From: Oscillatoria princeps RMCB-10
GTDB taxonomy: Bacteria > Cyanobacteriota > Cyanobacteriia > Cyanobacteriales > Oscillatoriaceae
Length of the DNA stretch: 64,000 bases
NCBI GenBank assembly: GCA_019359235.1
Contig: JAHHHT010000036.1
Span: 24,245 to 88,244, forward strand
Direction of reading: 5' to 3'
A program made the translations under genes and the position numbers. Positions 7,286-64,000 of the stretch are shown in pieces. Below the pieces are notes generated by a model. The model was not told the origin of the DNA and made no database searches. It was given only the letters and a program-made list of their open reading frames with translations. Every line of letters begins with the position of its first letter. Position 1 is the stretch's first letter.

Positions 7286-8032
7286 ACGTTCAGTTCCCTC
7301 CGTTACAGTTTATGGGTTCTCAATCTTTCAGGATTGCAGCAGTCTATCAGCTTACAGCCTATTTGGCTGTAAGCTCAATTTCGAGAAACCAATCGACCGG
7401 ACGCAAGAAAACCAGTTCAGCTGTGAGAGTGGCTGCAGAGAACTCACGGATCAGCGTTGCTGAGATGAGCGCTACTGGTTTCCTCGCTCACAATTTCATT
7501 ATGTCTCGCTGCACAGTGCATTCAGTGGGGGAAACCCTACTGTGTCAGTGGTATTGCCCGCACCTTTTGTGAGAGACACTTCCGGCGGCGGCTTGACGCA
7601 AATCTCGGGCTATTGTTGGGTTAGGCAAAGCGGAAACTTTTGCCGGAGTCTCAGCTTATCGCACCCGTTTCGATAAGCCAGACAGCCCTTGTGCGGGGTG
7701 AGTTGCGCCGCAACGCAACCAGCAGTGCGGGGAATATTTCTTGGGAGTTTAATCTGTTCAGTCGTCTGCTGCGCGAAAATAAAGGAACAGCTTGCCGGCA
7801 GCCAGAAGCCCGGTTTTCCCCCCCGCTAGCTGCTTCATATTTTTTGCGACATCTTGCTAACTTGCTTGACCGGCCTTTTTCAGTGCCGGCCTGGGAAGCA
7901 TTTCTGAGATAAAATACAGGCAAGGAATCCAGCAGCAGCGCGTTGCCTGCCGAGCCGGTTTGGTCGATTTAGCCCTTGAACTTGATTCAAAGAAGTGCCG
8001 CCAGAGCGAACAAAAGTAGGGGCGGGCTCACT

Positions 8033-8690
8033 ATAAATCTCTCGGAAAAGCCGAGAATTTTTATAAACCCGCCCCTGCTCTAGCAGTTCTAAATGATTTG
8101 TGCGAGTCTCTCTTTTCTTTGCTTGGCGCTCTACCCAAGGGGCGAGCCGCTAGCGCGTCTATGGCGTCTTGGCGGTTTATTAAAAAAAATAATACTCACT
8201 AGCAATCTCTCGGAGAAGCCGGGGAGATTTACAAACCGGCCCCTACCACAAGGGTTCACCCCGAGGGGCGGGTTAGCTAGCAATGTGTCGGGGAAGCTGA
8301 GGAGATTTATAGCAGTGGACAGCTCAGTAATGGACAAGGCCGGAACGCTGCCCTTACAAAGCCGCTGTAAGCGCTCCGCACTTCCGTAGATTGGAACAAC
8401 CAAGATGCCTGTCCTGCGAGGTATATCCGCAGCCAGTTAGGTTAGGACGTAGGACAGGCGTCTCGCCTGTCCCTATCCCTACTAGCAAGTGAGATGCCCT
8501 GTCCTTAACTGACTGTCCCTTGCTATATATCCGCAGGGACTGCGTTTGGCCTGCCCTCAATGTCTAATGTCCTAACCAATTTGGCTAGTGCTATATAAAC
8601 CGGCCCCTGCCACAAGGGTTCGCCCGCAGGGGCCGGTTCGCGAGAAATCTCTCGGGGAAGCGGAGGAGATTGATCAACCCGCCCCTACAG
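8033..8690. repeat. cluster of three copies of a composite hairpin repeat (AAATCTCTCGGrGAAGCsGrGGAGATT + ATAAACCsGCCCCTrC)
   Basis: Copies lie at 8033-8088, 8203-8325 and 8590-8690. Each carries two perfect inverted repeats, for example aaccggcccctgccacaagggttcgcccgcaggggccggtt. Related ATAAACCCGCCCC elements lie at 56740-56830 and 58985-59140. Confidence 0.7.
8436..8520. repeat. GGACAGGCGAGACGCCTGTCC-type palindromic repeat
   Basis: ggacaggcgtctcgcctgtccctatccctactagcaagtgagatgccctgtcc. Copies lie at 32283-32330, 38100-38200, 43900-43985 and 51838-51985. A derivative lies inside a coding sequence at about 40290-40350. Confidence 0.75.
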
Positions 8691-25596: not shown

Positions 25597-25657
25597 TGGC
25601 GTTAAAAAAGTTCCGGGTAAAAGTGACGCAATCGAATGTGAGACCTCTGTGCGGGGC

Positions 25658-32400: not shown

Positions 32401-32458
32401 TCTGAGGCTCTGTTTCAATCCCGTTGCCGGGATTCAGCTGGCCAAAAATCTTCTCCTC

Positions 32459-32917: not shown

Positions 32918-33049
32918 AAGATATTCCCTTTGCCTACCTGCTTCCAGTTTACCGGCTGGGGGGGAAACCGGGAGATGTCACCTCCTGTAGAGACGCGACA
33001 CCGGCATTCGCACAGCAGGGGCGGTGAGCGGGGCCGCCGGCTCTAAATG

Positions 33050-33900
33050 TGCCGGTTGTGTGTGACAGAAATTTTCGCAAAAATTGCACAAATTTCTGGA
33101 TTTATGCTAACCTAAGGATAATGGAAAAGGTGCGGCAATATCAGGTCACTAATGGGCCACATTCCATCAACTTCCTTCCCCGACAATCGCCTCGCATTCC
33201 CGTGGTATTCCCCTTGTTCCCAGCATCTGTAGGGTGCGTTCCGCGTGAGTGTACTCCTTATTTGTGTGCGTAAATTGATAAGGCGGAACGCACCCCCCGG
33301 TTGCGGTGCGTTCCGCGTGCGAGCCGGCACCATTCTGCGTGCGAGAATGGATTACGCGGAACGCACCCTACTTTCTACAGCTAGTTCCCCGGCGATTAGC
33401 CAGGTTCCTGGCGATTGGAAAGATGTTGTTGGCGCTCTCCGTGAGGGGTTAGACCTACAGCTAGTTCCTCCGAGATTAGCTAGGTTCCTGGCGATTGGAA
33501 AGATGTTGTTGGCGTTCTCCCTGAGGGGTTAGACGTTCTCTCTGGGAAGTAAAGAACGGCGTTGCATTGGCGAAGCGAAATTTCGGGCGCAGTCGTAAAG
33601 ATCCGCGCCGCCAATGCTTCGCCCCTACATCGGATCTTGTGTAGGGGCGAAGCATGAGCGCGACTGTTTCTGCAATCGGTGAAAAGATTACATCCGCTCA
33701 TGCTTCGCCCTTCCCCCTAGCGCTAGCTACATATAACCTTTAAAAAACCAAGCCAAAAAGGGGGTATAGGGTGGGTAAGACCCTACATCAATTCGCCAAC
33801 AGCTTCTTTCCAATCGCCGGAGAACTAGCAAAATCGCCTGGGAACTAGCTGTAACAGCTGAATATGCAACGCCATCCTCAATGCGCTCAAATGCGCTCAT
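33050..33900. repeat. non-coding repeat island (TAGGGTGCGTTCCGC hairpins, 2 x ~75-bp tandem unit, GGGGCGAAGCATGAGCG hairpins)
   Basis: 33225-33370 carries inverted gtagggtgcgttccgc/gcggaacgcaccctac units. 33360-33540 carries two tandem copies of ctacagctagttcc..gattagc.aggttcctggcgattggaaagatgttgttggcg.tctcc.tgaggggttagac. 33590-33720 carries cgaagcatgagcg palindromes also found at 62290-62430. Confidence 0.75.
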
Positions 33901-39914: not shown

Positions 39915-41738
39915 CTAAGCGCTGACAAAGGAAACGGCGACGCGAAATCCGAAGCGGTTATTGCGAATTTCCGGCACTACTCTGCAGCGGAAAGCGGAAC
40001 GGCAATCCCTGGGGTTGCTGAACCAAGAACCCCCGCGCAGCAACCGGCGATATTGATTTCCACCGGCATCCCAAACACCCCCATCAGCTAGCGCACCTGT
40101 GTAATTATCATGCCACGGATCGGCGCACCACTCCCAGACATTCCCGTGGGTGTCGTACAAACCAAAAGTGTTGGCTGGAAAACTCCCCACATCCGCTGTC
40201 TGTTTGCTATAGATTCCTTTGGGTTCAGAAGCGTAAATATAGTGACCGTGATAATTAGCTAATTCAGTCGTAACTGTCTCGCCAAAGTGGAAAGGTGTAG
40301 TGCAGGCGTCCTCGCCTGTACCTATTTTATAGGCGTCCTCGCCCGCACACGCGCGACAGGCGTATTCCCATTCCGCCTCGCTGGGTAAGCGGTAGTTGCG
40401 CCCGGTTGCTTGGGACAGTCGCGCACAAAATTCGGCAGCCTCGTTCCAGGATACATTCTCCACCGGCCTGTTTGCGCCTTTGAAATAAGACGGATCGGGA
40501 TTTAAATCCAGGTACACCTTGGGTAAAGCTGCGACAGCTTTCCACTGCGCCTGAGTTATGGGATATTTCCCCATAAAAAAGGGTTGCACTTTTACCAGGT
40601 GCTGCGGGCTTTCCTCATTATATCGCCCTGACTCAGTTTTTGGGGAACCCATCAGGAAAGTTCCCCCCGGAATTGACACCATTTCCAGGTTCAACCCGCC
40701 TCCCAAGTCATGGGCAAAGTATTCCGCTTGCCGGCGCGTGCGGTTGATTTCTCGCCCGTGCGCGTCTACCGTGATTGCGTCGAAGGCAAAAAACTGCAAG
40801 GGTGTTTTGCCTGAGGGGGGAGAGGTGCTAACCGAAATGGGCAATCCCGACGTGACGAATCCAATCCCGACAAAACCGGCTGCTTTAAAAAGTTGCCGGC
40901 GCGTTGGGGAATCCTCTTTCATCAGGGAGGAAACAGCTTGCAGCGCTTCCACTGCAGACGGGTAGCGCAGGCGAGAGTCACAGCGCACCATTGTGTCTAA
41001 AATCTTTGCCAGCTGGGGGCTAACTTGCACTTTGTTGCGCCAGATAATGTCACCCGTCTGGGGATTTTCTGGCAATCGCCGGGGAAAGATGCCGGTGAGC
41101 GCTTGTATTGCAGTCATTCCCAGCGCGTAAACATCGCTGCTAAACTGGGGTTTGCCCTTCGCTTGCTCACCCGGCATGTATCCGGGGGTGCCAATCCCAA
41201 CGGTCAAACTCGTCTGAGCTGGCGCATTTGCCACTTGGGTGCAGACTTGCTTAATTGCGGCAAAGTCTATCAAGACGATTTTACCATCTTGGCGGCGTCG
41301 GATTAAGTTTGCCGGTTTGATATCGCGGTGGATGACACCTTCTTTATGCGCGTGAGAAAGGACTGTCAGCACATCCAGCAAAAAGGCAATCGTCCGTTCT
41401 TCAGTCCACCGGCATCCCGGTTTGATTTCCGCAGACAGGTTCTCTCCTTCTATAAATTCTCGCACGAGATAGAACTCTTGATTCTCCTCGAAGTGAGCCA
41501 AAAATCCGGGAATTTGGTCGTGTTCGCCCAATTTCTGGAGGAGTTTAGCTTCCGTGTCGAATAGGGTTCTGGCAATCTCCAACGCGGACAGATTGTTGGA
41601 CAGGGGTTTGAGCTGTTTGACGACGCACGCAGGACTATCTGGTAACTGGGTGTCTGAGGCGAGGAAAGTTGACCCAAATCCTCCGCCTCCCAAGTGTTTG
41701 ACGATCTTATAGCGCCCCGCAAGGGTTGTTCCCAACAT
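39915..41738 (-). CDS. Ser/Thr protein kinase fused to C-terminal FGE-sulfatase (formylglycine-generating-enzyme-like) domain
   Basis: 607 aa; kinase subdomains GGGGFGSTF...VVKQL, HRDIKPANL, DFAAIK. The C-terminal FGE fold has RLPSEAEWEYACRA, HGNVWEWCADPWH and RGGSWFSNPRDCRSAFR. Confidence 0.9.
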   Translation of the reverse strand: MLGTTLAGRYKIVKHLGGGGFGSTFLASDTQLPDSPACVVKQLKPLSNNLSALEIARTLFDTEAKLLQKLGEHDQIPGFLAHFEENQEFYLVREFIEGENLSAEIKPGCRWTEERTIAFLLDVLTVLSHAHKEGVIHRDIKPANLIRRRQDGKIVLIDFAAIKQVCTQVANAPAQTSLTVGIGTPGYMPGEQAKGKPQFSSDVYALGMTAIQALTGIFPRRLPENPQTGDIIWRNKVQVSPQLAKILDTMVRCDSRLRYPSAVEALQAVSSLMKEDSPTRRQLFKAAGFVGIGFVTSGLPISVSTSPPSGKTPLQFFAFDAITVDAHGREINRTRRQAEYFAHDLGGGLNLEMVSIPGGTFLMGSPKTESGRYNEESPQHLVKVQPFFMGKYPITQAQWKAVAALPKVYLDLNPDPSYFKGANRPVENVSWNEAAEFCARLSQATGRNYRLPSEAEWEYACRACAGEDAYKIGTGEDACTTPFHFGETVTTELANYHGHYIYASEPKGIYSKQTADVGSFPANTFGLYDTHGNVWEWCADPWHDNYTGALADGGVWDAGGNQYRRLLRGGSWFSNPRDCRSAFRCRVVPEIRNNRFGFRVAVSFVSA

Positions 41739-42019
41739 GTGTTTTATGCAGTTTATGGCAAGTTTCTATCCAGGATAGAGCCTTTGGGCACAAATGTCAA
41801 TCCCCCTGGGTTTTCTAATTTTGTTTATCTCGCTACATTTAGGGTTTATTATACTGCATATCGGCGCGGATAAATGCAGCCGTTTCTGAAAATTATCGGC
41901 GTCCATCTGCGTTCATCTGCGGTTAAACTTTCTAAAAAAAAAATCGCGGTTCGCTTACGCGAGAGTGAAGAGGGAAGAGGGAAGAAGGGTAAAGGGCAAA
42001 AGGGGAAGAAGATAAAGGG

Positions 42020-43873
42020 TTAAGGAGTCCTCGCCAAAGAAAAGGCTACGCGAAAACCGCAGTTATTCTTGCGATGGTCTGGCCCAACCCCGCTACGGTA
42101 AGCCGAACGGCAACGCCAGGGTATGTTCTCCCAAGAAGCTCCAGGCGCCACAAAATGTTTTAGATCGGCTTCCCAGACACTCCCATCAGACGGCGCACCA
42201 ATATAATTACCGTGCCACGGATCGGCGCACAATTCCCAGACATTCCCGTGCATCTCGTATAGCCCAAAGGCGTTCGGCGGAAACCTGCCCACATCTGTTG
42301 TCCCTCCGTTATTGTGTAAATAGTTAGCCAAATCGGGGGTAATCGTCTCGCCGAAGTGGAATGGAGTTGTGGTTCCTGCGCGACAGGCGTATTCCCACTC
42401 CGCCTCGCTGGGGAGTCGGTAGTTGCGCCCGGTTGCTTGGAAAAGTCGGGCACAAAATTCCACCATCTCGTTCCAGGATACTTGCTCCACCGGCCTATTT
42501 GCGCCTTTGAAATAAGAAGGTTCGGGATTTAAGTCGCGGCTGACTTTGGGTAAAGAGGCGACAGCTTTCCACTGCGCCTGAGTTACAGTATATTTGCCCA
42601 TAAAAAAGGGTTTCACTGTTACCCAGTGCTGTGGTTTTTCACGGTTTTCGTCGTCTTCGCTTGGCGGGGAACCCATCAGAAAGGTTCCCCCCGGAATCGA
42701 CACCATTTCTAAAATCACTCCGTCTCCTACGTCATGGGGAAAGAATTCAGCTTGCTGGCGCGTGCGGTTGATTTCTCGCCCCCCCGCGTCTACTGTGATT
42801 ACATCGAAGGTAAAAGTTTGCAAAGGGGAAACCTCAACAATTGTGGAAGAGGGAGAAGTCGTGAAAACCTGACGGGCGAATACCGACGCCACAAATCCCC
42901 CACCGGCAAATCCCGCCAGCTTGAAAACTTGCCGGCGCGTCAGGGGGGAATTCGGTTTTGTCAAAGAAGAAACCGCTTGCAGCGCCTCAGATGCTGACGA
43001 GTAGCGCTGGCGGTAATCATAGCGCACCATTTTATCTAAAATGTTTGCCAACTTCGGACTAACTTGCGCCCTGTTGCGCCAGAGAATTTCACCCGTCTGC
43101 GGATCTTCTGGCAATTGCCTCGGGGGGATGCCGGTGAGGGCTTGAATTGCCGTGATTCCCAGGGCGTAAACATCGCTGCTCAACTGGGGTTTGCCCTGAG
43201 CTTGCTCACTCGGCATGTATCCGGGGGTGCCAATCCCAACTGTCAAACTCGTCTGACTCTGCTGCGCATTGGGCACCTGCGTGCTGACTTGCTTAATTGC
43301 CCCAAAGTCTATCAAGATGATTTTCCCATCTTGGCGGCGTCGGATTAAGTTTGCCGGTTTGATATCGCGGTGGATGACACCCTCCTGATGGGCGTAAGAA
43401 AGGGCTGTCAGCACCTCCAGCAAAAAGGCAATCACCCGTTCTTCTGCCCACTTGCATCCCGGTTTGATTTCCTCGCACAGACTGTCGCCCTCGATGAATT
43501 GCTGCACTAGATAGAATTCTTGATTTTCCTCAAAGTGAGCCAAAAGGCTGGGAATTTGGTCGTGTTCGCCCAATTTCTGGAGAACCCTAGCTTCGGTGTT
43601 GAATAACCGTCTGGCAATCTTCAGGGTAGACGGATCGTTCGACTGGGGTTTGAGCTGTTTAACGACGCACACAGGATTGTCTGGTAGCTGCGTGTCTGAG
43701 GCTAGGAAAGTTTGGCCAAATCCCCCGCCTCCCAGATATTTGACGATTTTATAGTGCCTCTTAAGGGTTCGTCCCAACATGGCTTTGATGCAGTGTCTGG
43801 CAAGTTTTTCTCCAGCATACAGCCTTTTGCCACAAATGTCAATCCCCTTTTTGGCAAAAGTTTTCACCCTCAC
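42020..43873 (-). CDS. Ser/Thr protein kinase::FGE-sulfatase fusion, tandem paralog (likely start at internal Met, coordinate 43780)
   Basis: 617-aa ORF. The sequence from MLGRTLKRHYKIVKYLGGGGFGQTF onward is collinear with the downstream paralog (about 70% identity by eye). The 31 aa before it are probably not translated. Confidence 0.9.
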   Translation of the reverse strand: MRVKTFAKKGIDICGKRLYAGEKLARHCIKAMLGRTLKRHYKIVKYLGGGGFGQTFLASDTQLPDNPVCVVKQLKPQSNDPSTLKIARRLFNTEARVLQKLGEHDQIPSLLAHFEENQEFYLVQQFIEGDSLCEEIKPGCKWAEERVIAFLLEVLTALSYAHQEGVIHRDIKPANLIRRRQDGKIILIDFGAIKQVSTQVPNAQQSQTSLTVGIGTPGYMPSEQAQGKPQLSSDVYALGITAIQALTGIPPRQLPEDPQTGEILWRNRAQVSPKLANILDKMVRYDYRQRYSSASEALQAVSSLTKPNSPLTRRQVFKLAGFAGGGFVASVFARQVFTTSPSSTIVEVSPLQTFTFDVITVDAGGREINRTRQQAEFFPHDVGDGVILEMVSIPGGTFLMGSPPSEDDENREKPQHWVTVKPFFMGKYTVTQAQWKAVASLPKVSRDLNPEPSYFKGANRPVEQVSWNEMVEFCARLFQATGRNYRLPSEAEWEYACRAGTTTPFHFGETITPDLANYLHNNGGTTDVGRFPPNAFGLYEMHGNVWELCADPWHGNYIGAPSDGSVWEADLKHFVAPGASWENIPWRCRSAYRSGVGPDHRKNNCGFRVAFSLARTP

Positions 43874-48535: not shown

Positions 48536-48643
48536 GATAATTCTGCTAGACGCACCAGCGGCTATACAACACAGCCTTTCCCGTCACCCTCACAAGCGTG
48601 ATTTTCCAGGCTGCTCTATTCTCCCACACCGTAATGGGGATTC

Positions 48644-48720
48644 TACAGAAACCCGGTTTCTTGGAGAAACCGGGTTTCTTGGCTGGTTTCTTGGCAGTTT
48701 CTTGGCAGCCCTCCTACCTA
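48644..48720. repeat. GAAACCCGGTTTC palindromes followed by GGTTTCTTGGC tandem units at the egtB 3' end
   Basis: cagaaacccggtttcttggagaaaccgggtttcttggctggtttcttggcagtttcttggcag. Confidence 0.8.
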
Positions 48721-54793: not shown

Positions 54794-55009
54794 GAAAGGT
54801 TATTTTATTCTTGCTGGAATCGTTGTGAATCCTAGCTGGTTGATCTATATGTAGTCTTTTGCGCAATTGCCGGGCATGGGGCATGGGGCATTGGGCATGG
54901 GATTTTCATGCTTTCGTTGCGCCCAATGGGGTGTGGGGGGCTGACTGGCAGTTTCTCAAATAGAACCGTTTGGTTGTGTTTGGAGCGTCGGGGGAAAATC
55001 ATCGAGGTT

Positions 55010-56674
55010 ATGTCTAATCTAACGCAAAAAAAGTTAAAAGGTAGAAACAAGCGGCTGTATCCCAGGTGGGGCGCTGCGACAAACCTGGCGTTCCGAACTG
55101 TCAAGCGGTTGAAAATTGCTATTGGCCGGCTTTCTCCGAGCTGGCAAGCTTGCGTACCCCTGGCGACGCTAATTTTGCTGGCTTGGGGTTGCGCAGCAGT
55201 TGCCCAGATGGAGAGCGCACCTGCTCCGCTACCGGCACCGATTCCGGAAGCTGTGCCGGCACCGGCAGCGGCAGCAGTACCGACGGTGGCAGAGCTAAAA
55301 GTAGCGCTGGACACGTTGTGGGTAACGATTGCCGCCTTCCTGGTGTTCTTTATGAACGCTGGGTTTTGCATGCTGGAAACGGGGTTGTGCCGGCAGAAAA
55401 ACGCCGTCAACGTGCTGTCAAAGAACTTAATTGTGTTCGCTCTCGCCACCGTCGCCTTCTGGGCGATTGGGTTTGGCTTGATGTTCGGAGATGGGAATGA
55501 TTTAATTGGGCTGAATGGGTTTTTTCTGACCGGCGCGGACAACAGCCCCGCCACAGGATCGGCTTACGATGGGGTTTTTGACGCGCTCAACTGGACGGGC
55601 GTGCCGCTGAGCGCCAAGTTTTTGTTCGAGCTGGTTTTTGCCGGCACTGCAGCCACAATTGTGTCTGGGGCGGTGGCGGAGCGAATTAAGTTTGTTAACT
55701 TCTTAATTTTCAGCCTTTTACTGGCGGGGATTTCCTACCCGATCACCGGTCACTGGATCTGGGGCGGTGGCTGGCTGCACAAAGCGGGATTCTACGATTT
55801 TGCCGGCTCAACTGCGGTACACTCAGTCGGTGGCTGGGCGGCTTTGATGGGAGCAGCTTTCCTGGGTCCCCGCTTGGGCAAGTATGAAGACGGGCAGTCT
55901 TTTGCCATGCCCGGGCACAACATGAGTATTGCCACTTTGGGCTGTTTGATTCTGTGGTTTGGCTGGTTTGGCTTCAATCCGGGCTCGGTAATGGCGGCCA
56001 ATCCGGGGGCGATCTCCCACATCGCTCTGACAACTAACATGTCGGGTGCGGTGGGCGGAATTGCTGCTACGATTGCATCTTGGCTGTATCTTGGCAAGCC
56101 GGATCTTTCGATGATTATCAACGGCATTTTGGCGGGGCTGGTTAGCGTCACAGGTTCCTGCGCTTACATTAAGATTGGCAGCGCTTTTGCGATTGGCTTG
56201 ATTGCCGGTATTCTGGTCGTTTTCGCCGTGACTTTCTTTGACCGGCTGAAGATTGATGACCCAGTGGGGGCTACTTCGGTTCACCTCGTCTGCGGCATCT
56301 GGGGCACTCTGGCTGTGGGTCTTTTCAGTGTTGGCCCGGGTGGGTTTCCTTGGATGTTTGACCTGGAGGGCAAGCCAATTGGTCCGCACGGTTTGTTTAT
56401 GGGGGGTGGTTTGGAAACCCTGCTCGCTCAGATTGTTGGCATTGTATCAGTGGGAGGCATGACTGTTCTGCTGAGCACTCTGTTTTGGCGGGGGCTGAAA
56501 GCGACTCTCGGTATCCGAGTTTCTCCACAGGAGGAATTCGCAGGTTTGGATATTGGGGAGCACGGGATGGAAGCTTACAGCGGGTTCGTTAAGGAAGCCG
56601 GTGCGGGCGGTTTTATTCCCGAACGCCCCAGTGGGATAGGGGGTAGCAGTGGGGGAATGGCTAAACGTCCTTAG
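55010..56674 (+). CDS. amt: ammonium transporter (Amt family)
   Basis: Amt signatures DTLWVTIAAFLVFFMNAGFCMLETG, VFAGTAATIVSGAVAERIKF, GGWAALMGAAFLGPRLGKY and an N-terminal signal-like segment. The start was chosen at MSNLTQ within ORF 54908-56674. Confidence 0.9.
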   Translation: MSNLTQKKLKGRNKRLYPRWGAATNLAFRTVKRLKIAIGRLSPSWQACVPLATLILLAWGCAAVAQMESAPAPLPAPIPEAVPAPAAAAVPTVAELKVALDTLWVTIAAFLVFFMNAGFCMLETGLCRQKNAVNVLSKNLIVFALATVAFWAIGFGLMFGDGNDLIGLNGFFLTGADNSPATGSAYDGVFDALNWTGVPLSAKFLFELVFAGTAATIVSGAVAERIKFVNFLIFSLLLAGISYPITGHWIWGGGWLHKAGFYDFAGSTAVHSVGGWAALMGAAFLGPRLGKYEDGQSFAMPGHNMSIATLGCLILWFGWFGFNPGSVMAANPGAISHIALTTNMSGAVGGIAATIASWLYLGKPDLSMIINGILAGLVSVTGSCAYIKIGSAFAIGLIAGILVVFAVTFFDRLKIDDPVGATSVHLVCGIWGTLAVGLFSVGPGGFPWMFDLEGKPIGPHGLFMGGGLETLLAQIVGIVSVGGMTVLLSTLFWRGLKATLGIRVSPQEEFAGLDIGEHGMEAYSGFVKEAGAGGFIPERPSGIGGSSGGMAKRP

Positions 56675-56971
56675 GCGTTGGGAAGGAAAGGGGGAGAGGG
56701 GGAGAGAAAAAATGTTGACGCGAGATTTATACCGGTCTGCTGTAGGGGCGGGTTCACCCGACATATTTGTGGCATTGCCAAGGGTATTAATAAACCCGCC
56801 CCCGCCCCACCCCTAATAAATACCACATAGGGCCGCAATTATATGAGGGGTGAGCGAAAGTTTTTCAGGTGATTTGCAAGGATTTGCAGTGAATTGTTCG
56901 AGCTGCATCTCAAGATGATAAATTGCTGTAATGGCATTCATTGATTTGTTGAAATCAGAGGGCAAAATTAA

Positions 56972-58660
56972 GTGCTGAAGAAAGTTCTGATTGCCGGGAT
57001 AGTATCGCTGTGTCTGCTGAGTGGCCTGCTGATGGGCAGGGTGGTGGCTCAAGACGAGTCCCCTTCCCCAGCTCCTTCTCCTGAACTGAGCGCACCGGCA
57101 GAGGTTGCTCCCGAGGGGGCTGCGCCGGCAGAGGGTGCTGGGCAACCGGCTGCGCCGATAGAGGTTTCTCCGCAACCGGCTGCGCCGATAGAGGTTTCTC
57201 CGCAGCCGGTTGCGCCACCGGCAGAGATGTCTCCGCAACCTGTCGCGCCGGCAACGGGTGTGTCTCCGCAACCGGTGGCTCCCGCACCGGTGTCTCCGGA
57301 ACCTTTCGTTGCACCGGCAACAGGGGAAGATACGGCTGCAGCGGCTGCGGTTTCTGCGATTGACACCGGCGATACCGCCTGGATGCTGATCTCGTCAGCG
57401 CTGGTGCTGCTGATGACTCCGGGGCTGGCATTCTTCTACGGGGGATTGGTGCGATCGCGCAACGTCCTCAACACGATGATGATGAGTTTGATTTTGATGG
57501 CGGTTGTCGGCGTCATCTGGGTGCTGTGGGGCTACAGTCTGGCTTTTGCGCCGGTTTCAGTAACGCCGCCTGCGGCTCCGGGAGAACCGGCGACCTTCGA
57601 TGCCAATCCGATTATTGGCAGCTTGAACTGGATGTTTTTGAACGGCGTCGCTTTTGACCAGCCCGATCCGGTGGGCTACGCCCCAACGATTCCCCACGAG
57701 GTGTTTATGGTTTACCAGATGATGTTCGCCATCATCACACCGGCGCTGATCTCTGGGGCGATCGTGGAGCGGATGAGCTTTAAGGCGTATTTCTGGTTCA
57801 TCCTGATTTGGGCGACGTTTATCTACGCCCCCCTGGCGCACTGGGTTTGGGGCAAGGGCTGGATTCAGACGATGGGAGCGCTGGACTTTGCCGGCGGCAC
57901 GGTTGTCCACATCAGTGCTGGGATTTCGGCTGTGGTAGCGGCTTGGATGATTGGCCCGCGCAAGACGTTCATGGTGCAGCCGGCGGCTCCCCACAATGTG
58001 CCCTATGTGTTGCTGGGGATTGGCGTGCTCTGGTTTGGCTGGATGGGCTTCAATGCCGGCAGCGCTTTGGGCGCGGGCTCTGTGGCGGCGGTGGCGTTTG
58101 TGGCCACAACGGTGTCTCCAGCGGCAGGGGGTCTGACTTGGGTGATTTTGGAGTGGGTGCTCCGGGGCAAACCAACAGCGATTGGCATTGCTAGCGGCTT
58201 CCTCGCCGGTTTGGGAAGCGTTACCGCCGCAGCGGGATTCGTGACTCCCATCGGGGCGCTCCTGATCGGATCGATCAGCTCTGTGTGCTGTTTCTTTGCG
58301 GTGAGCTGGCGAGCCAAACTGCAGTTTGACGATTCGCTGGACACCTTCCCCGTCCACGGCGTCGGCGGTACGGTGGGGATGCTTCTCACCGGCATCTTTG
58401 CCACGAAAGAGGTCAACGCGTTGGGGAATAATGGTTTGCTGTTCGGCAACTCGTCGCTATTGCGATCTCAAATCGTCGCTGTGGTTGCTACCTACATTTT
58501 TGCAGGGGCGGGCACGTTTATTATCCTGAAAGCCCTCGGAGCGATTATGGACCTGCGTGTGAAGCCGGAATCGGAAGACCAGGGTTTGGATATCAACGAG
58601 CACGGCGAAGAGGGTTACGGCGAGGAGTTCGCTTCTGGGCTGAGTTTTCCTGGGAAGTAG
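56972..58660 (+). CDS. amt: ammonium transporter with signal peptide and Pro/Ala-rich repeat linker
   Basis: 562 aa; GTG start; [62 protein letters not shown]. The linker has [10 protein letters not shown] repeats. Confidence 0.93.
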
Positions 58661-58736
58661 GGGTAGCTTGCCGGTTCGAGGGAGGGAGAGTCCCGGCACC
58701 CCAACTCCCTCCCCGCTTTTCGGCTGCCGTTTACAA

Positions 58737-58913
58737 GCAACTCTCGGCATCCGCGTTTCGCAACAGGAGGAATTTGCCGGTTTGGATATTGGCGAACACG
58801 GGATGGAAGCTTACAGCGGGTTCGCTCTGTTGCCGGTGCAGGCGGTTTTATTCCCGAGCGCCCCAGTGGGATGGGGGCGGGCAGTGGGGGAATGCCTAAA
58901 CGTCCTTAGACGT
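58737..58913 (+). pseudogene. duplicated 3'-end fragment of the first amt gene
   Basis: 58737-58825 reads ctcggcatccgcgtttcgcaacaggaggaatttgccggtttggatattggcgaacacgggatggaagcttacagcgggttcg, which encodes ...[27 protein letters not shown]. It matches 56497-56590 of amt1, then diverges with an indel. Confidence 0.6.
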
Positions 58914-59298
58914 TCGCTTCGCAGAGGGGAAGAGAAAAAATGCTCGCCCGATATCTGCCGGTGTGCTGCCTGGGTTCCCCCAACCTATTGGTGCAGCACC
59001 GGCAAGGGGATTAATAAACCCGCCCGCGTGCCGGCAGCATGGGGCCAAGGTGAGTGGGGGCCGGCTCACCGGACATATTTGTCGCATAGCGAAGGAGATT
59101 AACAAACCCGCCGCCGCCCCCGCATGAGCGCAAACCGCCTGGAAGAGTATCACCTATTGCTGCAATTTTATCAGCGTTGAGCGAAAGTTTTTAACGGGAT
59201 TGGCGAGGATTTGCAGTGAATTGTTCAAGCTTCATCTCAAGATGATAAATTTTTCTAATGGCATTCATTGATAGTTTCAAATCAGAGGGCAACAAGAC

Positions 59299-60951
59299 GT
59301 GCTGAAGAAAGTTCTGATTGCCGCGATTGTATCGCTGTGTCTGCTGAGTGGCCTGCTGATGGGCAGGGTGGTGGCTCAAGACGAGTCCCCTTCCGCAACT
59401 CCCTCTCCTGAACTGAGCGCACCGGCAGAGGTGTCTCCGCAACCGGCTGCACCGGCAGAGGTTTCTCCGCAACCGGCTGCGCCGATAGAGGTTTCTCCGC
59501 AACCGGCTGCACCGGCAGCAGTTTCTCCGCAACCCGTCGCGCCGGCGGGTGCGTCTCCTCAACCTGTTGCGCCGGCGGCGGGTGCGTCTGGGCAACCCGT
59601 GACTCCCGCACCGATGTCTCCGGAACCTTTCGTTGCACCGGCAACAGGGGAAGACACGGCGGCGGCTGCTGCAGCTTCTGCGATTAAAGACGGCGATACC
59701 GCCTGGATGCTGATCTCGTCAGCGCTGGTGCTGCTGATGACTCCGGGGCTGGCATTCTTCTACGGGGGATTGGTGCGATCGCGCAACGTCCTCAACACGA
59801 TGATGATGAGTTTGATTTTGATGGCGGTTGTCGGCGTCGTCTGGGTGCTGTGGGGCTACAGTCTGGCTTTTTCGCAGGCGTCTGATATCAATGTCAATCG
59901 GATTATTGGCAGCTTGGACTGGATATTTTTGAACGGCGTCGCTTTTGACAAGCCCGATCCGGTGGGCTACGCCCCAACGATTCCCCACCAGCTGTTTATG
60001 GTTTACCAGATGATGTTCGCCATGATCACACCGGCGCTGATCTCTGGGGCGATCGTGGAGCGCGTCAGTTTTAAGGCTTATTTTTGGTTCATCATCATTT
60101 GGGCGACGTTTATCTACGCCCCCCTGGCGCACTGGGTTTGGGGCAAGGGCTGGATTGGGGCGATGGGAGCCTTGGACTTTGCCGGTGGCACTGTTGTCCA
60201 CATCAGTTCTGGGGTTTCGGCAGTGGTAGCGGCTTGGATGATTGGCCCGCGCAAGACCTTCATGGTGCAGCCGGCGGCTCCCCACAATGTCCCCTATGTG
60301 TTGCTGGGGATTGGCATGCTCTGGTTTGGCTGGATGGGGTTCAATGCCGGCAGCGCTTTGGGCGCGGGATCTCTGGCGACTGTGGCGTTTGTGGCCACAA
60401 CGGTTTCTGCAGCAGCAGGAGGTCTAACCTGGGTGATTTTGGAGTGGGTGCTTAGAAGCAAACCAACGGCGATTGGCATTGCTAGCGGCTTCCTGGCCGG
60501 TTTGGTGGGCGTTACCCCCGCAGCGGGATTCGTGACTCCCATCGCGGCGATTCTGATTGGGTCAATTACCTCGGCGTGCTGTTTCTTTGGGGTTAGCTTG
60601 CGAGCCAAACTGCAGTTTGACGATTCGCTGGACACCTTCCCCGTCCACGGTCTCGGCGGTACGGTGGGGGCGATTCTCACCGGCATCTTTGCCACGAAAG
60701 AGGTCAACGCGGCGGGGAATAATGGCTTGCTGTTCGGCAACCCGTCGCTATTGGGAGTTCAAATCGTCGGTGTGGTTGTCACCTACATTTTTGCGGCGGT
60801 GGGCACTTTTATCATCCTGAAAGCGCTGGGAGCGATTATGGAGCTGCGGGTGAAGCCGGAATCGGAAGACCAAGGGTTGGATATCAACGAGCACGGCGAA
60901 GAGGGTTACGGCGAGGAGTTCGCTTCAGGGCTGAGTTTTCCTGGCAAGTAA
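59299..60951 (+). CDS. amt: ammonium transporter, near-identical tandem paralog of the preceding gene
   Basis: 550 aa; collinear with 56972-58660 at roughly 90% identity by eye. It has a longer PQPAAPAEVS repeat linker, and its upstream 110 nt (59190-59298) match 56860-56971. Confidence 0.93.
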   Translation: MLKKVLIAAIVSLCLLSGLLMGRVVAQDESPSATPSPELSAPAEVSPQPAAPAEVSPQPAAPIEVSPQPAAPAAVSPQPVAPAGASPQPVAPAAGASGQPVTPAPMSPEPFVAPATGEDTAAAAAASAIKDGDTAWMLISSALVLLMTPGLAFFYGGLVRSRNVLNTMMMSLILMAVVGVVWVLWGYSLAFSQASDINVNRIIGSLDWIFLNGVAFDKPDPVGYAPTIPHQLFMVYQMMFAMITPALISGAIVERVSFKAYFWFIIIWATFIYAPLAHWVWGKGWIGAMGALDFAGGTVVHISSGVSAVVAAWMIGPRKTFMVQPAAPHNVPYVLLGIGMLWFGWMGFNAGSALGAGSLATVAFVATTVSAAAGGLTWVILEWVLRSKPTAIGIASGFLAGLVGVTPAAGFVTPIAAILIGSITSACCFFGVSLRAKLQFDDSLDTFPVHGLGGTVGAILTGIFATKEVNAAGNNGLLFGNPSLLGVQIVGVVVTYIFAAVGTFIILKALGAIMELRVKPESEDQGLDINEHGEEGYGEEFASGLSFPGK

Positions 60952-61071: not shown

Positions 61072-61917
61072 TTGGATTCAAACACTGTTGAATTTGATCT
61101 CGTGCTGACTCGCTTTAAGACTGTTCCGGCTTGGGCGTTAGTTGCCCTGGCTTCCAACGTGTTACTGATGCTGGCAGTTTTCGTGGTGCTGCAGCGGGAG
61201 GAAAGGTTGCTGGGGGCTGCCCGAGCCGGTGCCACGGCGGCGCAGCCAACACCGGCACCCACCTTAGGGCCACGCCTCCAGTGGTCTTACGACCAGTGGG
61301 TGGCTCAGCTGAAGCGGGAGGCGGATGCTGCAGCCGAGAAGAAACCCCAGCGGTTGAGCGTCCTCGCTGGGGATTCCATCAGTCTGTGGTTTCCGCCGGA
61401 ACTGTTGCCCCCGGGGCGCGTTTGGCTGAACCAGGGGATTTCTGGAGAAACGTCCGAGGGGCTGCTCAAGCGGCTGACGCTGTTTGACCGCACTGATCCG
61501 GAGACGGTTTTTGTGATGATTGGGATTAATGACTTGATCCGGGGGGTGGGGGATGATACGATTCTCAATAACCAGCGGCTGATTATTCAGGATTTGCGCT
61601 CGGTTCATCCCTACACGCAGATCGTAGTCCAGTCGATTTTGCCCCACAGTGCCAGTAAGGCAACCTGGGAGGGGCGAGAGCGTTTGCTGGCAATTCCTAA
61701 CGAGCGCATTCGCCGGCTGAACAAGGAGCTGGCTGCGATTGCGGCGGAACAAGGTGTGGAGTATTTGGATTTGTATCCTTTGTTTGCCGACGCCCAAGGC
61801 AATCTGCCGATGTCATTCAGTACGGATGGCTTGCATTTGAATTCTCAAGGCTATTTGGTCTGGCGTTCGGCGCTGCTGCTTTTCAGCCAGCTGAGGCTGG
61901 AGGAGCCGGCTTTTTAG
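61072..61917 (+). CDS. SGNH/GDSL-family hydrolase, membrane anchored
   Basis: 281 aa; N-terminal anchor, block I VLAGDSISLW, block III GINDL, block V DGLHLNSQGY. Confidence 0.8.
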   Translation: MDSNTVEFDLVLTRFKTVPAWALVALASNVLLMLAVFVVLQREERLLGAARAGATAAQPTPAPTLGPRLQWSYDQWVAQLKREADAAAEKKPQRLSVLAGDSISLWFPPELLPPGRVWLNQGISGETSEGLLKRLTLFDRTDPETVFVMIGINDLIRGVGDDTILNNQRLIIQDLRSVHPYTQIVVQSILPHSASKATWEGRERLLAIPNERIRRLNKELAAIAAEQGVEYLDLYPLFADAQGNLPMSFSTDGLHLNSQGYLVWRSALLLFSQLRLEEPAF

Positions 61918-61929
61918 GGGTTGACAAAT

Positions 61930-62910
61930 TGTAATTTCTATGCTAATAAGACTAGGCAAATTAGGTTAGTTTCCAGGCGATAAGCTAGTTTCCGGGCGAT
62001 TGGAAATCGCGGCTATACAAACGAAGTCCGCCTGCGCGGACTTAAGAGCTAAAAGTAGGGTGCGTTCCGCGTGCTTCTGACTGCTACTTCTAGGGAATAC
62101 TGTGAACGCGGAACGCACCACCGGCACTCGTTGGGGCGGGTTTATTCAGATGTTGAGTTGTGTGGCTTTGAGTTCGGGCGAATCCGCCCCCACCGGCATT
62201 ATATCACGGAGGTGCCGGTGCGTGCGAGATGCCGGCTGCGCGCGGTGCCGGGCGGGTTTTTTGGAGGTTGTCTGTGGGTGGCACAGGTGTTAGGGCGAAG
62301 CATGAGCGTTAGCGAAGCGGCTGCGTCAGCAGCTATATAATCCTTCCTTGGGTGGCAAAAATAGTCGCGCTCATGCTTCGCCCCTAAGCTGGAATTCCTC
62401 TAGGGGCGAAGCATGAGAGTGAGGAGCTTTCCTGGGCATTCCTGGTGCCGGGCGGGTTTATTCAGATGTTGAGTTGTGTGGCTTTGAGTTCGGGCAAATC
62501 CGCCCCCACCGGCATTATATCACGGAGGTGCCGGTGCGTGCTTTGATGCCGGGTTTCGTGGGGTGGGGGCGGGTTTATTCAGATGTTGAGTTGTGGGGCA
62601 AATATTTCGGGCAAATCCTCCCCTACAGGCATTCTATCACAGAGGTGCCGGTGCATACAAGACACCGGCACTCGCGGGGCGCTAAAAGTAGGGTGCGTTC
62701 CGCGTGCTTCTGACTTCTACTTCTAGGGAATACTCTGAAGGCGGAACGCACCCCCGGCACTCGTAGGGGCGGGTTTATTCAGATGTTGCGTTGTGTGGCA
62801 AAGATTTCGGGCGAACCCGCCCCTACAGGCATTCGTGGGGGCGCTGGGAACACGGTGCGTTCCGCAGAAGCGCGACTTCTACTTCTGCGGAATCCTCTCA
62901 AGGCGGAACG
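61930..62910. repeat. repeat island: four copies of a ~95-bp composite MITE-like unit (GGGCGGGTTTATTCAGATGTTGAGTTGTGTGGC...GAATCCGCCCC + CACCGGCA..TGCCGGTG), TAGGGTGCGTTCCGC hairpin pairs and GGGGCGAAGCATGAGCG palindromes
   Basis: Units start at about 62136, 62451, 62567 and 62768. Inverted gtagggtgcgttccgc / gcggaacgcaccctac pairs lie at 62055-62125, 62690-62760 and 62850-62920. cgaagcatgagcg palindromes lie at 62290-62430. The interval has no credible ORF. Confidence 0.75.
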
Positions 62911-62914
62911 CACC

Positions 62915-64000
62915 CTACTCTTCGAGCAAGCGCTTCAGTTCCTCATCCGTGAAGGGATTATTCCCCGCTTTCAGGGCGTCAACCCAGCGCTGCCTTTGCG
63001 ATTTTTCCTTCTTATAAAAATCCTTACTCCCAGAAGGTAGATTGTCAATCCAAGCGATGTATGCCTGAAAGTCCTCAATCGCGCCTTTTGGGTTGCCGGT
63101 GAGCGCCCGGGCAATGCCGCGACTGTCGCGATACCTTTCATTATAAGGAGCGAGGGCTACGGCTTTCTCGCAGGCAAACATCACGTCTTTGGCGTGCCGG
63201 TGCAAACTGCCGTACCTGCAGAGAGTATTCCAAGACTCCGCATAAATCTCAAAGTTTGGGTCGAGCTTTTGGGCTTGTGCGTAAGCGGCGATGGCTTCCC
63301 TCACCTTGCCTTCCTTGACAAGCTCTTCTCCCTTTTTCACTATAACGGTTGCCGGCTCAACGTTAGGGTCGAGTTGCAATGCCTTCTGAAATTCCGCCAC
63401 CGCAGCTTCAATATTGCCCTCTTCGGCAAGCTGTTCGCCCTTCTTAATTCGTTCGGAAGCTTCTGCTAATTGCTTGGCTTTGGTTTCTGGATTGAGGGGT
63501 AAGCTGGGATTCCACTTTAAGGCGGTGCGGAAAGTAGCAACTGCTCCATCAACATTGCCTCCTCTCGCTTCCTCCTCCCCTTCCTTAACCAGAAATGGCG
63601 CGGCGTCCCGCCGATTGGATTGGGTTTGGCACACTTCTAGTTTTTCCAAGTCTTTGGGATGGGTGATAAGGTAATCGTTGAGCCAGTTGCAACCCCTCAC
63701 CAGCAGTTCGTCTAAGCTGTAAACCCGCCACACCCGGGCTGTCATATCAGAGGAGGCGGTGACGATGCGCTTTCCGTCGGGGCTGAAACTGGCGCTGTAG
63801 ACAGGACTCTGATGCCCTTTTAGCTCGTACAGCTGCTTGCCGGTGCTGTCCCACACCCGGGCTGTATTGTCAAAGGAGGCGGTGACGATGCGCTTTCCGT
63901 CGGGGCTGAAACTGGCGCTGTTGACAGCATCCTGATGCCCTTTTAGCTCGTACAGCTGCTTGCCGGTGCTGTCCCACACCCGGGCTGTTCTGTCAGAGGA
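62915..64000 (-). CDS. WD40-repeat protein with C-terminal TPR-like domain, partial (N-terminus beyond window end)
   Basis: Repeated ...DSTGKQLYELKGHQDAVNSASFSPDGKRIVTASFDNTARVW units are present. The reading frame stays open to position 64000. The C-terminal half has TPR-like AxxxFxxALxxNP repeats. Confidence 0.8.
   Translation of the reverse strand, partial: SSDRTARVWDSTGKQLYELKGHQDAVNSASFSPDGKRIVTASFDNTARVWDSTGKQLYELKGHQSPVYSASFSPDGKRIVTASSDMTARVWRVYSLDELLVRGCNWLNDYLITHPKDLEKLEVCQTQSNRRDAAPFLVKEGEEEARGGNVDGAVATFRTALKWNPSLPLNPETKAKQLAEASERIKKGEQLAEEGNIEAAVAEFQKALQLDPNVEPATVIVKKGEELVKEGKVREAIAAYAQAQKLDPNFEIYAESWNTLCRYGSLHRHAKDVMFACEKAVALAPYNERYRDSRGIARALTGNPKGAIEDFQAYIAWIDNLPSGSKDFYKKEKSQRQRWVDALKAGNNPFTDEELKRLLEE

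Follow-up and report, generated by a model that had tools for sequence, protein, structure and literature searches.

A gene-free kilobase of Oscillatoria princeps as a probable mosaic cluster of REP-type repeats

What fills a kilobase of DNA that encodes no gene and in which several families of repeats are packed together? The interval of ~1 kb considered here, island 2 (61918–62914), occupies the 3'–3' gap between a GDSL hydrolase gene on the plus strand and a 1909-aa STAND/WD40/TPR gene on the minus strand of a 64-kb window, by which we mean the whole stretch of Oscillatoria princeps DNA that was analyzed. A preliminary description called the interval free of ORFs; the source genome's own annotation indeed calls no gene in it, and the ORFs inside it are short, repeat-derived, and without conservation in the orthologous locus of Oscillatoria PCC 10802. 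That description further proposed either repeated insertion into a permissive site or one larger composite mobile unit. We consider it likely that island 2 is a mosaic REP cluster, similar to a BIME or REPIN cluster, in which small palindromic repeats without coding content have accumulated where two genes converge at a permissive 3' junction. It belongs to a known, rapidly changing type of bacterial "repeat nest" and is no new genetic system.

Repeat families of the island

Island 2 holds four 92-nt units (described earlier as ~95 bp), three inverted pairs of GGTGCGTTCCGC, three GGGCGAAGCATGAG arms, and one unit with two copies of TAGTTYCCNGGCGAT (Table 1). The counts of these families are well over chance: the window contains 18 arms of family A (GGTGCGTTCCGC; 0.6 expected), six of family B (GGGCGAAGCATGAGCG, three per island; 0.13 expected), eight matches to family D (TAGTTYCCNGGCGAT; 0.7 expected), and four matches to the 22-mer GGGCGGGTTTATTCAGATGTTG of the 92-nt unit (0 expected). 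Families A, B, and D recur at 33.2–33.9 kb (island 1), as had been proposed for 33050–33900, and a BLAST comparison of island 2 with the rest of the window finds A and B in common with 33.2–33.7 kb. K-mer censuses of the window are too noisy for ranking intergenic regions.

Three components appear to make up the island. The first would be GTAG-tagged long hairpins of REP type belonging to at least three families, with arms GTAGGGTGCGTTCCGC (A), GTAGGGGCGGGTT (C), and TAGGGGCGAAGCATGAG (B); the second, a single end of a MITE-like element (family D plus its habitual follower, family F); and the third, short hairpins (H) and linkers of CACCGGCA, the octamer that replaces HIP1 in this lineage. The GT[AG]G tag by which GTAG REPs are recognized is found in families A (GTAG-GGTGCGTTCCGC), B ((G/C)TAG-GGGCGAAGCATGAG), C (GTAG-GGGCGGGTT), and E (GTAG-GACAGGCG), and the hairpin stems are strong (z = -4 to -10).

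Table 1. Positions of the repeat features in island 2, island 1, and a third island of the window
Feature	Position	Strand	Remarks
Unique spacer right after the GDSL hydrolase stop codon	61918..61966	.	Collinear with PCC 10802 (L001), ~90–94% identity
Family D, two direct TAGTTTCCNGGCGAT sub-repeats then TGGAAA	61967..62006	+	Conserved in PCC 10802 (L001)
Family F, TCGCGGCTATACAAAC and hairpin GAAGTCCGC-CTGC-GCGGACTT	62007..62048	+	Regular follower of D
A1, GTAG-tagged hairpin, 14-nt perfect stem GGTGCGTTCCGCGT, 33-nt loop	62055..62119	+	
Linker CACCGGCACTCG, includes octamer CACCGGCA	62119..62130	+	
C1, long hairpin GGGGCGGGTTTATT ... GAATCCGCCCC(CAC), loop ~40 nt	62130..62193	+	
H1, hairpin CACCGGCA-14 nt-TGCCGGTG, an inverted octamer pair	62191..62220	+	
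200-bp block between 16-nt direct repeats GGTGCCGGGCGGGTTT	62244..62443	.	Missing from PCC 10802
C2 and H2	62446..62541	+	99% identical to C1 and H1 over 92 nt; recent local duplicate
C3 and H3	62563..62658	+	Orthologue of third PCC 10802 unit, 90%
Linker CACCGGCACTCG, octamer-containing	62663..62674	+	
A2, GTAG-tagged hairpin	62688..62752	+	A2 and C4 form a 153-nt segment, 92% identical to A1-linker-C1
C4, GTAGGGGCGGGTT ... AACCCGCCCCTAC, tag at each end	62763..62826	+	Orthologue of last PCC 10802 unit, 89%
A3, hairpin with right arm GCGGAACGCACCCTAC	62854..62918	+	Conserved in PCC 10802
Island 1, A doublet, GTAG-[hairpin]-linker-[hairpin]-CTAC	33229..33372	+	Dispersed unit of ~150 bp
Island 1, D-B-D MITE-like element	33377..33860	.	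D-type terminal inverted repeats around B palindromes (33609–33710)
Third island, seven C-type arms (GTAGGGGCGGGTT and variants)	8016..8688	.	Different loops

Family A occupies six loci in the window and, contrary to the preliminary description, is not limited to the two islands, being found at 37.9, 39.85, 47.4, and 51.8 kb as well, where it stands without B or D. The three plus/minus pairs of island 2 lie at 62059/62108, 62692/62741, and 62854/62903, the left arm of the third lacking TAG; island 1 contains two pairs, at 33233–33367, and its type of A doublet is also present in L025, L069, L110, L126, and L127. Each A locus is situated 0–45 nt past a stop codon or between convergent genes, the extragenic, gene-downstream position that characterizes GTAG REPs. 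A census of 26 A hairpins, with arms within one mismatch of the 12-nt core, reveals loops of 36–42 nt in 21 and of 3–4 nt in three, with loop sequences that vary by locus. GTAG REPs are units of 20–40 bp in high copy number; of the A hairpins, the three short ones are 35 bp long and the majority ~62 nt, and the shortest form with a tag at both ends is a perfect 35-bp palindrome. A 5' GTAG is present in 14 of the 26 and a 3' CTAC in 12, and the tags are at the outer ends in those A doublets examined. In A1, 37 nt separate the 12-nt cores and the DNA fold has an energy of -18.7 kcal/mol (z = -4.9).

Family C, too, reaches beyond island 2: its arms also occur at 8.0–8.7 kb and 56.74 kb, giving three loci in the window. 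The first of these additional loci is the third island, which sits within an ORF-poor stretch (7.3–8.9 kb) and also contains an E-type hairpin (8440–8475). The copies of the 92-nt unit lie at 62134, 62450, 62567, and 62767, the last three with 99%, 85%, and 71% identity to the first, and each unit comprises two adjacent hairpins, C and H, with no terminal inverted repeats spanning them. The earlier term "MITE-like" is apt for this unit only in part: its arms do come from a dispersed family of GTAG-tagged hairpins, whereas a scan of GTDB species representatives located the unit with its own loop at one place only, the orthologous PCC 10802 locus, and the unit has multiplied locally and shows no target-site duplication. 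The unit is embedded in a module, A-CACCGGCACTCG-C-H, that recurs in island 2 with arms alternating between plus and minus. Families A and C are also present in contigs of relatives.

Matches to D are located at 61967, 61986, 33382–33495, and, inverted, 33813–33847, so inverted partners (33382–33495 versus 33813–33847) exist at island 1 only. There, the D-B-D element has the anatomy of a MITE, with terminal inverted repeats enclosing a short non-coding interior. Its left terminal repeat is tandemly duplicated with a 99-nt period, and its interior is 78% identical to positions 9461–9791 of L102, a relative's contig. The D copy of island 2 is a solo copy of this terminal repeat; the F sequence after it occurs once in the window. 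L126 has three instances of D followed by F, and the combination is found in L087 and L110 as well. In the window and the relatives' contigs, D-type ends are confined to the islands, their orthologues, and L102, and no transposase lies beside them. No direct repeats were found flanking D-B-D, and the window and the orthologous loci compared yielded no target-site duplication or clean empty site for any element. The B sequences of island 2 lie in the 200-bp block (fold -30.4 kcal/mol, z = -3.1), which contains a truncated C-like left arm (62250–62290) and a B block with three TAGGGGCGAAGCATGAG arms (62290+, 62370-, 62401+) and has only ~60 nt of core in common with the B region of island 1. The 16-nt direct repeat that brackets this block is part of a C arm and may reflect recombination.

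The octamer CACCGGCA occurs 88 times in the window, on both strands and in genes and spacers alike, versus nine occurrences of HIP1 (GCGATCGC). Its abundance together with HIP1 depletion is also seen in L001, L126, and L127 but not in L128 or L129. The same octamer is the top 8-mer and alternate HIP (rCCGGy / CACCGGCA) of PCC 10802 (Elhai 2015, PMC4390886), and it makes up the H hairpins and the linkers in island 2. HIP-type octamers are thought to be products of methylation-biased mismatch repair rather than of mobility, and in this respect they form a layer separate from the REP-like families.

Orthologous loci and alternative explanations

Comparison with related strains reveals orthologous intergenic regions with kept edges and different interiors. 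The edges of island 2 are collinear with PCC 10802 at 90–92% identity; in between, the sequences differ, and PCC 10802 has no B block. C1, C3, and C4 have orthologues there (87–90%), and each strain has duplicates specific to its lineage, C1/C2 in the window (99% over the core) and the first two C units in PCC 10802 (96%). These sequences show that the extra 92-nt copies originated separately in each lineage, through local duplication. At island 1, the D-B-D element is present, altered, or absent in three lineages, with the same A doublet adjoined by three different contents: L126 has the same outer end as D-B-D and a different interior, and L127 lacks D-B-D and has another hairpin repeat at the same junction. 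The three lineages are about equidistant, which leaves insertion and deletion of D-B-D indistinguishable. About 14 usable contigs of relatives were among the matches listed in a metagenome scan with the 15-mer TAGGGTGCGTTCCGC, a probe too short for that collection, the 120 matches listed being mostly chance singletons.

This gain, loss, and duplication of repeats between orthologous loci supports the proposal of a permissive site. Given that edges are kept, interiors differ, and the extra 92-nt copies are of separate origin in each lineage, we favor a mosaic REP cluster over a single composite transposon. The orthologous loci show that island 2 grew by gain or loss of blocks, with the A-linker-C-H module copied locally, probably via unequal or microhomology-mediated recombination among the many near-identical arms. 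The repeats may be tolerated at island 2 since nothing there needs reading, and hairpins at the 3' ends of the flanking transcripts could serve as stabilizers or terminators.

Some of these observations would also be explained without a mobile element, if a single ancestral hairpin module had multiplied purely through slippage and local duplication, whether tandem or segmental. The A–C segment is doubled, C1 and C2 are nearly identical, copy number has shifted independently per lineage, and the three A loops of island 2 are 90% alike and unlike A loops elsewhere. However, the same arms, with unrelated loops, are found in other genomes and at numerous sites unlinked to the island, and the B block and the D and F sequences are unrelated to the module and also found elsewhere. 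Local duplication therefore accounts for copy number and not for the origin of the families, and as a complete explanation we consider it unlikely.

We judge it equally improbable that the island is kept by selection, whether as a two-way terminator or insulator, an mRNA-stabilizing 3' structure, or a source of small RNA. Such a role is suggested by the convergent 3'–3' position, by the stability of the hairpins, by A3, a hairpin that lies against the WD40 stop codon, overlaps it, and has been conserved in PCC 10802, and by REPs elsewhere that are known to act in these ways (PMC3733652). Yet the middle 700 bp lacks conservation in a comparison of strains whose flanks are ~90% identical, terminator-like sites show no excess (4 versus 2.9 in shuffles), and the 16 predicted base pairs of the C hairpin are without compensatory changes. 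Rfam 15 gives no match at the gathering score in the whole window and two sub-threshold matches in island 2; a structured RNA was rejected given the lack of an Rfam family at threshold and of covariation in the C hairpin.

A single composite mobile element that spans all of island 2 and has inserted at 33 kb as well is very improbable, even though three families are found together in both islands and B and D do form one element in island 1. The two islands differ in order, orientation, and content and have no outer ends in common; A stands by itself at four other loci; the PCC 10802 orthologue has D, A, and C without B; and the 22-mer of the 92-nt unit was found at one PCC 10802 locus only. 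The idea does survive at the level of sub-blocks, given the B palindromes inside the D-bounded MITE-like element of island 1 and the repeated A-linker-C-H module of island 2.

A degenerate CRISPR-like or integron attC-like array has a negligible probability and was excluded on anatomy: a weak CRISPR-DR28 match over F (62020–62043, E = 0.019, 27 bits versus a gathering score of 35) is judged to be chance, F is a single-copy hairpin in the window, and the conserved ends, variable centers, and post-stop-codon position are only superficially similar to attC sites, whereas regular repeat-spacer periodicity and cassette ORFs are absent, the gene tables contain no cas or integrase genes, and the outer motif is GTAGGGT...ACCCTAC instead of RYYYAAC...GTTRRRY.

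Two further candidates were rejected. A promoter or leader common to both islands was considered for the motif TTGACA-N17-TAATAA, which is uncalled by a promoter scan, and the likeness between the spacers of islands 2 and 1 falls short of significance, as 89 of 500 shuffles score equally well. A phage origin was considered as well; IMG/VR contains neither B nor C, and its four matches to A are single arms without an inverted partner.

Known repeat systems and a putative mobilizing enzyme

The mosaic REP cluster we propose has its closest counterparts in the GTAG-tagged REP superfamily, whose members form dimers and mixed clusters between convergent ORFs, in cyanobacteria too, where families GTAG-12/15/16 have been described (Di Nocera et al. 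2013, PMC3733652). Like these, the repeats described here have a GTAG tetranucleotide ending a GC-rich palindrome, several families per genome, dimers 20–100 bp apart, mixed clusters with flanking DNA included, and sites downstream of genes where the neighboring ORFs are unidirectional or convergent; some published families also have large loops. They differ in that the arms are specific to the Oscillatoria/Kamptonema lineage (set against the published families by description only), the stems are 12–16 bp, the tag is often at both ends, and most loops are 36–42 nt, conserved in length and not in sequence.

Similarly, the REPINs of Pseudomonas fluorescens SBW25 are inverted doublets that form hairpins and occur in ordered clusters (element and flanks in tandem) and in disordered clusters of unrelated elements; clusters of tandem repeats exceed 700 bp, and a "second mechanism" of duplication type was proposed for their formation (Bertels and Rainey 2011, PMC3116915). 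REPIN halves, however, are imperfect palindromes with a spacer conserved per family, while the GGTGCGTTCCGC arms are not self-complementary and their spacers differ from locus to locus. Family A thus falls outside the definition of a REPIN as two inverted imperfect-palindrome REPs with a family-specific spacer, which counts against the REP reading.

The function of BIMEs is defined by the binding of gyrase, IHF, or Pol I. The likeness of island 2 to the BIMEs of Escherichia coli is one of sequence organization, with other sequences and in another phylum: both are mosaics of REP types in alternating orientation (here, A-CACCGGCACTCG-C-H) in extragenic 3' regions, with recurring short linker motifs (see also PMC2817692). 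Cyanobacterial MITEs such as Nezha (Lin et al. 2011, cited in PMC3184786) resemble D-B-D in being non-coding (D-B-D is ~480 bp long), in terminal inverted repeats (45–60 nt in D-B-D), in presence or absence among strains, and in a related copy in another genome. They differ from D-B-D in its lack of a target-site duplication and of an autonomous parent IS in the DNA examined, and from island 2, which has one end (D) and a partial core (B) only.

We infer that a RAYT (REP-associated tyrosine transposase; Y1_Tnp, PF01797) acting on single-stranded hairpins would have spread the GTAG-tagged families genome-wide, as in other bacteria. Cyanobacterial TnpA-REP subclasses carry long GT[AG]G REPs (PMC6006769). 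GTAG-GGTG... REPs flank the RAYT genes of an Anaerolineae-like contig and of two cyanobacterial genomes, and one such REP has 17 nt in common with family A; indirect support comes from RAYT-flanking REPs elsewhere, which start with GTAGGGTG. In L128, cyanobacterial RAYT genes have the canonical REPIN form next to them. The window and ~150 kb of relatives' DNA yielded no RAYT or other transposase, using tblastn with IS200 and YafM sequences as probes and a profile of 120 RAYTs against six-frame ORFs, and the best 120 cyanobacterial matches of a protein search with a cyanobacterial RAYT seed include none from the source genome or PCC 10802.

Simple copy-and-paste of whole units is at odds with loops that vary by locus between invariant arms, a combination unexpected from such a process. 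It is conceivable, although doubtful, that family A, and perhaps C, constitutes a distinct class of GTAG element in which arms of 12–16 nt and a loop length of 36–42 nt are constant and the loop sequence is free; in A, arms and loop length are constant across loci and across genomes ~10% diverged. If so, some activity would keep restoring the arms or select for them; a candidate is a protein that recognizes a specific sequence, for instance one of the cyanobacterial TnpA-REPs of subclasses 2.4, 2.7, and 2.8. The islands would then be places where such activity drives strain-level rearrangement and even rewrites the 3' ends of genes, as suggested by tag-supplied stop codons and the altered 3' end of Uma2.

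The mosaic REP cluster reading explains three ORF-free kilobase stretches of the window as REP-type repeat nests, and the arm sequences can be used for masking and annotating such repeats in the Oscillatoria PCC 10802/Kamptonema lineage. Within loci that are otherwise collinear, these nests change fastest and could act as strain markers.

As a curiosity, two genes terminate in a stop codon provided by the GTAG tag of a repeat, the TAG of the tag being the stop codon at two A loci; the right arm of A3 gives the TAG (62915–62917, minus strand) of the STAND/WD40/TPR gene.

Arrangement of repeats at a convergent junction

The interval between the GDSL-family hydrolase gene and the WD40 gene (island 2) is a mosaic of dispersed hairpin families set at a convergent 3′ junction. 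No gene is called there in the genome annotation, and the short ORFs, which are built from the repeats, have no conserved counterpart in the orthologous locus of Oscillatoria sp. PCC 10802; the preliminary description reported no ORF. All of the repeats it listed (four 92-nt units, three A pairs, B arms, and a D unit) are present above chance, and a 22-mer of the 92-nt unit has four matches in the window vs zero expected. The sharing that it claimed with an island at 33.0–33.9 kb is borne out, families A, B, and D recurring at 33.2–33.9 kb (island 1). Further family A loci lie at 37.9, 39.85, 47.4, and 51.8 kb, and further C-type arms at 56.74 kb and in an ORF-poor third island at 7.3–8.9 kb. 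The B block of island 2 has a common core of only ~60 nt with island 1, and in island 2 a solo D end stands before F, its usual companion.

Features of the repeat islands and other repeats in the window
Feature	Position	Strand	Remarks
GDSL-family hydrolase gene	61072-61917	+	left flank of island 2
Island 2	61918-62914		between two stop codons of converging genes
STAND/WD40/TPR gene	62915 onward	-	right flank of island 2; 1909 aa in genome annotation
92-nt unit (C plus octamer hairpin H)			four copies in island 2; 99/85/71% identity to first copy
Family A (GGTGCGTTCCGC); GTAGGGTGCGTTCCGC ... GCGGAACGCACCCTAC			three inverted pairs in island 2; 18 arms in window vs 0.6 by chance
Family B (GGGCGAAGCATGAGCG); TAGGGGCGAAGCATGAGCG, inverted pairs			three arms in island 2; 6 in window vs 0.13 by chance
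Family C; (GTA)GGGGCGGGTTTATT ... ~40 nt ... CGAACCCGCCCC(TAC)
Family D (TAGTTYCCNGGCGAT)			one double unit in island 2; 8 matches in window vs 0.7 by chance
D+F of island 2	61967-62048		solo D end, then F
Octamer CACCGGCA/TGCCGGTG in island 2	62119, 62191, 62213, 62507, 62529, 62646, 62663
D-B-D element (MITE-like)	33377-33860		~480 bp; D = terminal inverted repeat, 45-60 nt
Island 1 beside A doublet, window			D-B-D
Island 1 beside A doublet, PCC 10802			outer D end as in window, three D+F units, no B
Island 1 beside A doublet, metagenomic relative			different hairpin repeat (AAAGCCCCCCTTTTTAAGGGGGG...)
Third island	7290-8890; arms 8016-8688		seven C-type arms (GTAGGGGCGGGTT and variants); loops are small hairpins
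E-type hairpin (GTAGGACAGGCGTCTCGCCTGTCC)	8440-8475		in third island
GAGAAACCGGGTTTCTT-GAAG-AAGAAACCCGGTTTCT hairpins	25654-25689, 29215-29250, 37906-37941, 48642-48677		dispersed; no GTAG tag
Tandem paralogues and coding repeats	35539-36042 and 38937-39500; 39915-43873; 54908-60951

The main families A, B, and C are long hairpins with arms that start (G)TAGG. In single-stranded form their stems are strongly folded, with z of -3 to -10, and shuffled sequence folds as well as the C+H unit (z = -1.5) or the D+F segment (z = -1.4). Among 26 family A hairpins from the window and its relatives, no arm departs from the 12-nt core by more than one mismatch and the loop measures 36–42 nt in 21 and 3–4 nt in three; the long loops vary in sequence from locus to locus. 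Family A remains an oddity, in that arms and loop length are constant and loop sequence is free. The A hairpins are commonly paired in doublets of the form GTAG-[hairpin]-linker-[hairpin]-CTAC, and family C occurs with other loops at 8.0–8.7 kb, at 56.74 kb, and on another contig (L110). One GAGAAACCGGGTTTCTT-GAAG-AAGAAACCCGGTTTCT copy sits inside the linker of an A-variant doublet at 37.9 kb.

Family A elements lie immediately 3′ of genes. An A hairpin provides the WD40 gene with its stop codon (62915-62917), the TAG coming from the GTAGGG tag, and this arrangement is conserved in PCC 10802; the CyanoTRADDas_TM gene (stop codon at 37864-37866) ends in the same way. The A hairpins at 47.49, 39.9, and 47.39 kb lie 5–45 nt past a stop codon.

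The terminal hairpin of each 92-nt unit (CACCGGCA ... TGCCGGTG) is made of an octamer that also forms the CACCGGCACTCG linkers of island 2. The 64 kb contain 88 copies of this octamer, spread over both strands and over genes and spacers alike, vs nine of HIP1 (GCGATCGC). The top 8-mer of PCC 10802 is CACCGGCA, an alternate hyper-abundant octamer (HIP) tied to an rCCGGy methyltransferase (Elhai 2015, PMC4390886), and the octamer of the window is this already published alternate HIP.

Comparison with orthologous islands

In a search of one genome per GTDB species, the 22-mer was found at exactly one locus, in PCC 10802 (Kamptonema formosum at NCBI), where the gene order amt-GDSL-island-WD40 is orthologous to that of island 2. 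Orthologues of island 1 were taken from PCC 10802 and a metagenomic relative (contig L127), and the three lineages are roughly equidistant (88–94% nucleotide identity in flanks). At its left edge (61918-62048; spacer, D, and F) island 2 aligns collinearly with PCC 10802 at 90% identity, and at its right edge (62758-62914; fourth C unit and third A pair) at 91–92%, whereas the middle differs. A 200-bp block of the window (62244-62443), in which the B block lies together with a truncated C arm and which has a 16-nt direct repeat on either side, is missing in PCC 10802, which has in place five tandem short GTAG REPs (GTAGTTGGGCTTTAGCCC) absent from the window and a ~400-bp AT-rich insert (contig L001, 4080-4480), likewise not in the window. 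The insert contains a small minus-strand ORF (MKLIATEQGLLIPKELL...) that looks like an AbrB/antitoxin-type protein. These comparisons show that island 2 changes through gain and loss of blocks and local duplication. The earlier suggestion of a permissive site for repeated insertion is largely right, given collinear edges and a differing interior.

An identity matrix of C units places the first, third, and fourth as orthologous across both genomes (87–90%), and the first two units are 99% identical over the core in the window and 96% in PCC 10802, two pairs that are separate lineage-specific duplications. The three A loops of island 2 are 90% alike and unlike A loops at other loci, and an A-C segment of 153 nt is duplicated at 92%. 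Based on these three observations, copy number in island 2 increases by local duplication. Local duplication alone accounts for copy number only, however, and leaves the dispersed arms unexplained. The conserved edge hairpins, especially the third A pair, may be a selected RNA or terminator element, but no Rfam match is found, covariation is seen in 0 of 16 pairs of the C hairpin, and the middle of the island is not conserved. That island 2 is one composite transposon, the other reading offered in the preliminary description, is contradicted for the island as a whole: islands 1 and 2 differ in order and content, family A stands alone at other loci, and B is missing from the PCC 10802 orthologue. 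A CRISPR or attC array is ruled out by anatomy.

At island 1, the A-doublet junction (...GAAAGTAGGGTGCGTTCCG) is common to all three lineages and the adjoining content differs. The interior of the D-B-D element contains B palindromes and has a 78% homologue on a relative's contig, nested in an A hairpin. Comparison of the three lineages shows neither a target-site duplication nor a clean empty site. The MITE-like label given earlier to the 92-nt unit is only partly apt. Beside island 1 (region 32290-32917), the Uma2-family gene encodes 152 aa here vs 238–241 aa in relatives; its 5′ part is 97.5% identical to the metagenomic relative and 88.6% to PCC 10802, and where L127 has 2866-3168, its 3′ part (32410-32521) consists of other sequence, with E-type hairpins just beyond (32290-32390). 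On the opposite flank of the island, the 795-aa gene has 94% identity to PCC 10802 and 92% to L127. Identity to relatives around island 1 (32522-32954 vs flanks) is patchy, which hints at a possible recombination patch with its end at island 1.

Relation to REPs and RAYT genes

Descriptions of GTAG-tagged REPs, cyanobacteria included, report genomes that carry several families, dimers, and clusters of mixed type that take in flanking DNA between convergent ORFs (PMC3733652); Pseudomonas REPIN clusters are tandemly repeated and exceed 700 bp, and a separate duplication mechanism has been proposed for them (PMC3116915); and MITEs are plentiful in cyanobacteria (PMC3184786). Island 2 matches these in form. 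It departs from a strict REPIN in that no arm is a palindrome in its own right and spacers are not specific to a family, and the D-B-D element departs from a MITE in its lack of target-site duplication. We conclude that island 2 is an ordinary but unusually dense REP/BIME-type repeat nest of lineage-specific families.

The GTAG-tagged families would be spread by a REP-associated tyrosine transposase (RAYT), although no RAYT was found in the window or in ~150 kb of DNA of this lineage. Support for such a role is indirect. Repeats of the form GTAG-GGTGGGCA(A/T)TGCCCACC, a REPIN-type doublet among them, flank two RAYT genes of cyanobacteria, and published work on cyanobacterial TnpA-REP proteins describes subclasses whose REPs are long and of GT[AG]G type (PMC6006769). 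A contig retrieved solely by a family A 15-mer carries a RAYT gene (PF01797) with flanking REPs (GTAGGGTGCGTTCCGCTTKTGAACGCACC). The contigs with this RAYT gene are Anaerolineae-like and metagenomic (WPCI01; L099 55-606, L013 5221-5458, and L117), and the first 17 nt of these REPs are common to cyanobacterial family A, which may reflect convergence or a shared recognition motif.

A short canonical REP (GTAG-TTGGGCT-TT-AGCCCAA), of which the 64-kb window has none, occurs in relatives (L001 4937-5075, L025 8700-8817, L102 1424-1470, and L127 2333-2350), often in tandem with a period of ~25–28 nt. Among coding repeats of the window, a 12-nt tandem repeat is common to the 795-aa and 494-aa proteins, two neighboring Pkinase + FGE-sulfatase genes are 78–86% identical, and three adjacent ammonium-transporter genes encode N-termini with proline-rich repeats.
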